This document shows positions 5,105 through 6,493 of a DNA stretch of 12,984 nucleotides, one piece after another. A program made the translations under genes and the position numbers. Each line of letters begins with the position of its first letter. Position 1 is the first letter of the stretch. A model generated the notes under the pieces. The model worked only from the letters and a program-made list of their open reading frames with translations, searched no databases and was not told the DNA's origin. The stretch is from a virus (Duplodnaviria > Heunggongvirae > Uroviricota > Caudoviricetes): the IMG/VR virus record IMGVR_UViG_2859799533_000002; one strand, given 5' to 3'.

Positions 5105-6493
5105 ATGGCTTTTAAACACTATGATGTTGTCAGGGCGGCGTCGCCGTCAGATCTTGCGGAAAAGCTGACACATAAACTGAAAGAGGGCTGGCAGCCGTTT
5201 GGTAGTCCGGTGGCCATAACCCCTTATACTCTGATGCAGGCGATTGCAGCAGAAGGTGCAGTAATCAGCGCCACCAGCGACCCGGAGTATTACTTTGTTG
5301 TGGTTCTGGCAGGGCAGTCAAACGGCATGTCGTATGGTGAAGGCCTTCCGCTGCCGGGGACATATGACCGTCCGGACCCGCGTATTAAGCAACTGGCGCG
5401 TCGCAGTACGGTGACACCGGGCGGTGCAGCATGCAAATATAACGACATCATTCCGGCGGACCATTGTCTGCATGATGTGCAGGACATGAGCCGTCTTAAC
5501 CATCCGAAAGCGGACCTGTCAAAGGGGCAGTACGGAACCGTGGGGCAGGGGCTGCATATCGCCAAAAAACTGCTGCCGTTTATACCGGCGAATGCGGGCA
5601 TTCTGCTGGTTCCATGCTGTCGTGGTGGTTCAGCGTTCACCACCGGAGCTGATGGCACATACAGTGACGCGAGTGGTGCCTCGGAGAATTCAACCCGCTG
5701 GGGTGTGGACAAGCCGCTGTATAAGGACCTTATCGGTCGAACAAAAGCGGCACTGGAGAAGAACCCGAAAAATGTGCTGTTTGCCGTGGTGTGGATGCAG
5801 GGGGAATTTGATTTTGGCGGTACGCCGGCAAATCATGCCGCACAGTTTGGTGCGCTGGTTGATAAATTCCGTGCAGACCTGGCGGATATGGCAGGCCAGT
5901 GCGTCGGTGGCTCTGCTGGCGGTGTTCCCTGGATATGCGGGGACACGACGTATTTCTGGAAGCAGAAGAACGAATCCACGTACCAGACGGTGTACGGCAG
6001 CTATAAAAATAAAACGGAAAAGAATATCCATTTCGTACCGTTCATGACCGATGAGAACGGGGTGAATGTGCCGACGAACAAACCGGAAGAAGACCCGGAC
6101 ATTCCGGGTATCGGTTATTACGGTTCGAAATGGCGTGACAGCTCAGCCACCTGGACGTCACAGGACAGGGCGAGCCATTTCAGTTCATGGGCTCGCCGTG
6201 GGATTATTTCCGACCGTCTGGCAACGGCGATTCTGAGCTGCGCGGGTAAGTCTTCTGCGTTTGTTAATGGTACTGCCGGGGTGGTTGTTCCAGACAGGCC
6301 GGTTACCACCTCAGAGTCTGTAATTTTTTACGATGCCAAAAAAGCTACAGACAATCAGCTGAAACCTTATGGCTGGGACGGTATGTATGGCAGACGCACA
6401 CTGGTTGATGACAGCGGCAATAAAGCTCTGCGAATTGAGAAAAATAACAGCTCGAAATCCTGGTCAATGTACTGTGAGGTGTACTGGCAATAG
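5105..6493 (+). CDS. nanS-p: Prophage NanS-p-like sialate O-acetylesterase (short N-terminal domain plus SGNH/SASA esterase domain), 3' end replaced by IS600
   Basis: 462-aa ORF with GGAGGA ribosome-binding site; GQSN catalytic-serine block (VVLAGQSNGMSYGE) and WMQGEFD block typical of SGNH esterases. The position downstream of the phage tRNAs matches the NanS-p locus of lambdoid and Stx prophages. Native sequence ends at 6474; the last five codons and stop (EVYWQ*) come from the IS600 terminus. Confidence 0.8.
   Translation: MAFKHYDVVRAASPSDLAEKLTHKLKEGWQPFGSPVAITPYTLMQAIAAEGAVISATSDPEYYFVVVLAGQSNGMSYGEGLPLPGTYDRPDPRIKQLARRSTVTPGGAACKYNDIIPADHCLHDVQDMSRLNHPKADLSKGQYGTVGQGLHIAKKLLPFIPANAGILLVPCCRGGSAFTTGADGTYSDASGASENSTRWGVDKPLYKDLIGRTKAALEKNPKNVLFAVVWMQGEFDFGGTPANHAAQFGALVDKFRADLADMAGQCVGGSAGGVPWICGDTTYFWKQKNESTYQTVYGSYKNKTEKNIHFVPFMTDENGVNVPTNKPEEDPDIPGIGYYGSKWRDSSATWTSQDRASHFSSWARRGIISDRLATAILSCAGKSSAFVNGTAGVVVPDRPVTTSESVIFYDAKKATDNQLKPYGWDGMYGRRTLVDDSGNKALRIEKNNSSKSWSMYCEVYWQ

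Follow-up and report, generated by a model that had tools for sequence, protein, structure and literature searches.

The open reading frame at positions 5105–6493 (plus strand; 462 amino acids plus stop) of the 12,984-nt stretch of DNA analyzed here (the window; IMG/VR record IMGVR_UViG_2859799533_000002) is a truncated derivative of the NanS-p family of prophage esterases and not an intact member of it. Intact nanS-p belongs to the late region of the prophage and codes for a sialate O-acetylesterase that also serves in capsid decoration. The gene was very likely broken after codon 457 by an IS600-associated deletion in a decayed lambdoid prophage of a Shigella boydii-type chromosome, and what is left is likely a silent remnant. 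A locus of Shigella assembly CP026866.1 (GCA_002949955.1) matches the window at 100% identity. The exact 462-aa protein occurs on 17 contigs and has been deposited as a YjhS / DUF1737 domain-containing protein of Shigella boydii CDC 3083-94 (ACD09499.1); a one-residue variant with the EVYWQ tail has been deposited under S. flexneri. There is nothing unusual about the ORF: it is a pseudogene cut short by IS600 within a gutted prophage, and public databases already contain its sequence.

When the ORF was compared by megablast with complete E. coli genomes and phages, the gene grouped with prophage nanS-p. Its native part (5105–6474, plus strand) is approximately 96–97% identical in nucleotide sequence to intact nanS-p over 5282–6477. 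A first-pass annotation, made from the DNA alone, had placed the end of native coding sequence at 6474. Indeed, IS600 begins at 6475, and DNA identity to intact genes (loci L001 and L002) persists until 6477 and then stops abruptly; the three nucleotides at 6475–6477 (TGA) are compatible with both native nanS-p and IS600 and constitute a 3-nt microhomology. The remaining stretch of the ORF (6475–6493, plus strand) is derived from IS600, which supplies the third base of codon 457 (TGT, Cys), codons 458–462 (GAG GTG TAC TGG CAA), and the TAG stop at 6491–6493. The final EVYWQ and the stop are thus IS600-encoded, as had been proposed.

In BLASTP comparisons, amino acids 1–457 of the window protein aligned with amino acids 1–472 of 636-aa homologs at 89% identity, the alignment ending in ...SWSMYC. 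Since the protein alignment ends at residue 472 of 636 and DNA identity ends at position 6477, we count 164 residues as missing relative to the 636-aa homologs. Intact NanS-p homologs are 636–654 aa long; the two closest, from E. coli O104:H4 C227-11 and NMBU-W12E19, are both 636 aa, and a third relative is 648 aa. Comparison with full-length homologs had been suggested as a check of the truncation. Complete proteins among the best 120 matches were 636–730 aa long, all contained DUF6645, and none ended near residue 457, while the shorter entries among these 120 were mostly marked as partial by their source.

Pfam analysis of the window protein revealed DUF1737 (PF08410) at residues 3–50 (E = 1.2e-15) and SASA (PF03629) at residues 66–261 (E = 2.6e-11). 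The esterase catalytic blocks, previously noted as apparently present, were all found: GQSN (residues 70–73), WMQGE (230–234), and RASH (355–358), the RASH/RSSH motif being block IV of NanS-p esterases (PMC10462455). No Pfam match to DUF6645 was obtained with the window protein; in a 636-aa homolog this domain spans residues 483–594 (E = 1.6e-28). With the homolog alignment stopping at residue 472 of 636 and DUF6645 gone, the predicted loss of the C-terminal domain is confirmed. Domain borders were taken from a search of PDB sequences with the 636-aa homolog. Chromosomal NanS (3PT5) covers homolog residues 72–393 (E = 3.5e-118), and the whole of this region is kept in the window protein. The crystallized C-terminal domain of a NanS-p protein (6YP6, 218 residues) covers residues 426–630 (E = 7e-42). 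The break corresponds approximately to chain residue 56 of 6YP6, beyond which everything is absent. The cut therefore falls within the C-terminal domain and not at a domain border, leaving a stub of approximately 47 residues, or about one-fourth of the jelly-roll. When P0018, a 636-aa homolog, was modeled with AlphaFold2 from a 12-sequence alignment, the mean pLDDT was 46, too poor for a fold search; in this low-confidence model about 4 of roughly 14 predicted C-domain strands, by a rough count, precede the break. Aromatic residues Y510, Y515, Y540, and F611 have been proposed to form the sugar site of the phi24B protein (PMC10462455); judged by position, all four fall past the break in the window protein. 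The product would retain DUF1737 and the full esterase domain and would lack the carbohydrate-binding jelly-roll domain.

The window protein also differs from its relatives in the linker between DUF1737 and SASA (window 5240–5265), where 15 residues (45 nt) are deleted in frame compared with proteins P0033 and P0035 and locus L015. In the relatives, the borders of this stretch carry AGAAGG(T/C) repeats. The deletion was defined from the protein alignment and by reading the DNA by eye; the N-terminal alleles differ, and MAFFT alignment of the linker region with L015 was poor. The equivalent linker of phi24B gp84 has been suggested to be proteolytically cleaved (phi24B preprint).

The element at the junction is an IS600 (IS3 family) at 6475–8514 on the minus strand. 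Its 2,040 bp, less a nested IS1 (768 bp) and an 8-bp duplication, amount to 1,264 bp, the canonical IS600 length. The element has imperfect terminal inverted repeats; its outer termini are TGAGGT...ACCTCA, the two ends reading TGAGGTGTACTGG... and ...CAGGCTACCTCA, and it ends at 8514 (...CTACCTCA). On the minus strand, orfA (8148–8450) matches HTH_Tnp_1 and orfB (7297–8112), whose 3′ end is broken by the nested IS1, matches rve; the transposase also matches NCBIfam transpos_IS3, and positions 7386–8514 are 99.9% identical to an annotated “IS3-like element IS600 family transposase.” The nested IS1 (6610–7377, plus strand, 768 bp) is flanked by the duplication GAAAATCT at 6602–6609 and 7378–7385, which is 8 bp and not 9 bp long. 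Among the sister loci it is confined to L008 and L011, and so represents a recent insertion. An uninterrupted, 1,264-bp IS600 lies at the same two junctions in six sister loci (L005–L007, L009, L010, and L012).

The flanks of IS600 are CTG (6472–6474) and TAT (8515–8517), and hence there is no 3-bp target duplication, in agreement with the first-pass reading. In two Shigella-type genomes, a target duplication was present at 7 of 22 full-length IS600 copies and absent at the other 15. The missing duplication points to later recombination or deletion and is no argument against the identity of the element. From base 6475 onward the sequence is identical to that of the second IS600 copy in this genome, and the two copies also share the CTG just outside. 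If this triplet were counted as part of IS600, the junction would shift to 6472. Across two Shigella-type genomes, the 48 distinct IS600 left ends surveyed carried 31 different flanking triplets, with CTG at 2 of the 48; because of this diversity CTG is assigned to the flank and the shifted junction is ruled out. The presence of CTG outside the IRL end of both copies (at 6472–6474 and, in L008, beyond the second copy) is probably a coincidence.

IS600 and IS1 occur in multiple copies, and repeats of this kind are a frequent cause of broken or misjoined assemblies, so an artefact at the junction had to be considered. It can be dismissed with near certainty: in most of the 10 independent assemblies retrieved, several of them complete chromosomes, both junction strings were found exactly, and the same two junctions occur with an intact IS600 as well as with the IS1-interrupted copy. 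The junction is inherited and is no assembly error. An exact-match scan of GTDB representative genomes for the nanS-p/IS600 junction gave no match.

To the right of IS600, the window contains only IS1 copies and genes of a satellite, so the lysis and structural genes downstream of nanS-p are replaced, as the earlier annotation had stated. The satellite, which we take to be of the capsid-forming PICI/P4-like type, is represented by its integrase gene from nucleotide 601 to the end, in three pieces, followed by AlpA, Bro-N, and Icd-like genes. The intact integrase is a P4-type protein of 413 aa. The first piece (8515–8583, plus strand) starts at nucleotide 601, or codon 201, and is 100% identical to positions 4941–5009 of E. 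coli locus L003. An IS1 follows (8584–9351, plus strand; 9-bp duplication GTATGGTCT), then a second integrase piece (9352–9780, plus strand; Pfam Phage_integrase) that is 100% identical to L003 5001–5429, and then another IS1 (9781–10548, plus strand; 9-bp duplication GAACTTCTT). The integrase pieces overlap by the 9-bp duplications of these two IS1 copies. The rest of the remnant (10549–12617, plus strand) runs from the integrase 3′ end through the Icd-like gene and is cut by the second IS600; it includes the AlpA gene (10712–10969), the Bro-N gene (11026–11604), and a YlcI-like gene on the minus strand (11938–12243). From 10548 onward, the third piece is about 87% identical to its E. coli relative, compared with 100% for the first two.

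In E. coli the full satellite (int-alpA-bro-icd-primase-ssb-major capsid-decoration-small terminase) was found in L003 and L016. In strains SCEC020022 and STEC313 (L003 3311–5582; L016 11311–23810) it is inserted within a lambdoid portal gene, which is thereby split into N- and C-terminal partial CDSs. There it follows the lysis cassette and terminase genes at a distance of a few kb (about 6–8 kb from the lysis cassette) and shares their orientation; nanS-p and the satellite integrase of the window also point the same way.

The flanks of IS600 are unduplicated and its right flank corresponds to integrase nucleotide 601, which bears out the earlier view that the join to the integrase fragment is a deletion or rearrangement. 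Since the satellite of E. coli lies downstream of the lysis and terminase genes and is co-oriented, a single IS600-associated deletion would be the simplest origin of the join. Recombination may have taken place between an IS600 copy in nanS-p and a co-oriented copy in the satellite integrase; alternatively, an adjacent deletion may have arisen through intramolecular transposition of a single IS600. By either route roughly 8 kb would have been removed, a size estimated from the E. coli relatives. The deletion would have taken out the 3′ end of nanS-p, the genes for holin, endolysin, Rz, and terminase, a 5′ segment of the portal gene, and integrase nucleotides 1–600. The ORF now runs five codons into the IS600 end before meeting a stop. 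No genome was found with the intact ancestral arrangement (this nanS-p allele, lysis genes, terminase, and a satellite-bearing portal gene), and we infer from E. coli prophages of another type that both flanks used to be collinear within a single prophage.

The second IS600 (12618–12984, plus strand, inverted relative to the first) extends past the window end and, in the source genome, adjoins cheA, thereby connecting the satellite remnant with cheA-cheW-tar (L006 16025–19235); the left side of the prophage is at potC/potD. Because this copy links the remnant to cheA and the other side of the prophage is potC/potD, the arrangement implies a long-range IS600-mediated chromosomal rearrangement at the locus. 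A different history of the nanS-p/integrase join can be built on the same evidence: the nanS-p prophage and a satellite from elsewhere in the chromosome could have been brought together by an IS600-mediated inversion or translocation, with no local deletion. The absence of a target duplication from the IS600 flanks, the same absence at 15 of 22 full-length copies in two Shigella-type genomes, and the tie of the satellite remnant to cheA in a prophage adjoining potC/potD would all fit such an event. However, nanS-p and the satellite integrase are co-oriented, and the same satellite, with 100% identical integrase DNA, occurs approximately 6–8 kb past the lysis cassette in E. coli lambdoid prophages. 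We consider inversion or translocation unlikely, though a possibility to be reckoned with; given the co-orientation and the satellite position in E. coli prophages, one deletion would explain the join. A composite transposon (IS600-satellite-IS600) inserted into nanS-p was also considered and rejected, as its right outer flank is cheA and not the 3′ end of nanS-p; in addition, the outer flanks on one strand are CTG and CAG, which form no direct repeat.

The prophage has also been damaged upstream. In an intact relative the gene order is Q, a small ORF, a methylase gene, tRNAs, and nanS-p. Downstream of nanS-p, the C227-11 and NMBU-W12E19 prophages carry genes for DUF1378, DUF826, holin, lysozyme, Rz, and terminase, and the 648-aa relative has the same context. 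In the window, the tRNAs and the methylase gene upstream of nanS-p match those of intact prophages; Q and the downstream lysis cassette are absent. The tRNA cluster (Met/Ile2-CAT, Arg-TCG, Arg-TCT; 4366–4615, plus strand) is the usual upstream neighbor of stx and nanS-p in lambdoid phages. The N6/N4 DNA methyltransferase gene (3308–4325, plus strand) lacks its first 41 nt at the end of an IS1 that carries an IS2 (1336–3307, plus strand) and has no target duplication. Through this element the lambda-type integrase side of the prophage is linked directly to the shortened methylase gene; nothing is left of the early region, Q, or pR′. The window and L008 lack approximately 128 bp near 1950–1953 that sister strains keep. 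The gap between the tRNAs and nanS-p is the site of stx in Stx phages, and the prophage remnant carries no stx.

Induction of nanS-p occurs together with that of stx and is driven by the Q-dependent late promoter (PMC10462455). Because IS1 has removed Q and pR′, the truncated nanS-p is probably silent. A sigma-70-like site was detected by a consensus-match scan just before the tRNA cluster (4328–4356), and three terminator-like hairpins lie between the tRNAs and nanS-p (4630–4995); the same scan, a consensus match only, found no promoter-like site from the hairpins up to the nanS-p start. Judging from this layout, the truncated gene is most likely silent or very weakly expressed.

Could the 462-aa protein nevertheless be a functional, retained short form, that is, a soluble esterase that does without the jelly-roll domain? 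The whole region homologous to chromosomal NanS (3PT5), a protein with no terminal domains, is intact and contains the catalytic blocks. In addition, the jelly-roll of phi24B gp84 is removed by proteolysis, giving a band of approximately 35 kDa with the deacetylase domain (bioRxiv 10.64898/2026.04.10.717836). The exact protein is moreover identical in 17 contigs, but since these contigs are about 99.9% identical overall, identity of the protein is no sign of selection. Several observations speak against a short form: the prophage lacks Q and pR′ and has terminator-like hairpins ahead of the gene, the incomplete beta-sandwich of approximately 47 residues is likely unstable, both the catalytic and the jelly-roll domains are described as contributing to activity (bioRxiv 10.64898/2026.04.10.717836), and sister strains keep losing DNA at the locus. 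A functional short form is, in our view, improbable. If the protein were made, its catalytic domain could be active, since NanS has no other domain and the jelly-roll is shed from phi24B gp84 by proteolysis; the stub may, however, destabilize the product. It is more doubtful still, and indeed very improbable, that an IS- or tRNA-associated promoter drives transcription of the truncated gene and that this S. boydii lineage has kept the protein as a functioning, soluble sialate O-acetylesterase; were this the case, part of a phage capsid-decoration protein would have been domesticated.

Among known proteins, the pseudogene product most closely resembles full-length NanS-p of O104:H4 C227-11 (WP_000874468.1, 636 aa) and the P0018 cluster (636 aa; named Shigella dysenteriae in its source), with 89% identity over window residues 1–457, long identical esterase stretches, the same C-terminal type as far as the break, and a probably equivalent position among lambdoid late genes. 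Unlike these proteins, it lacks residues 473–636, ends in 5 IS-encoded residues, and has a linker shorter by 15 residues. [quoted passage not shown] Homology to chromosomal NanS/YjhS of E. coli (3PT5) extends across the entire catalytic domain, but that protein has neither DUF1737 nor the jelly-roll and is not prophage-borne.

IS3-family insertions (IS629/IS1203) have been described in nanS-p of O157 Stx2a phages, yielding the “CTR3” variant (PMC10462455). As in that variant, an IS3-family element alters the C-terminal end of NanS-p in a lambdoid prophage. The window, however, has IS600, a Shigella host, and no stx, and everything downstream is deleted, so that more than a simple insertion is involved. 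In Shigella, IS1, IS2, and IS600 are among five expanded IS families that drive genome decay through gene interruption, deletion, and rearrangement (PMC7373316). All three are present at this locus, which does not differ in substance from the IS-driven pseudogenization and deletion described there. We conclude that the locus represents no new system but the ordinary decay of a Shigella prophage through IS elements. The 462-aa YjhS / DUF1737 domain-containing protein of S. boydii should be annotated as an IS600-truncated nanS-p pseudogene and not as a distinct short esterase family. As a natural truncation without the jelly-roll, it is possible material for asking whether NanS-p activity needs that domain.

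The locus provides a clean, fully resolved case of prophage erosion by nested IS1, IS2, and IS600 and by IS-associated deletions in Shigella, and it is still eroding within the lineage: L005 and L013 lack the stretch corresponding to window 9352–11209, and in L011 hardly anything is left from the end of the IS1 at 9351 up to the second IS600, both losses being IS1-associated.
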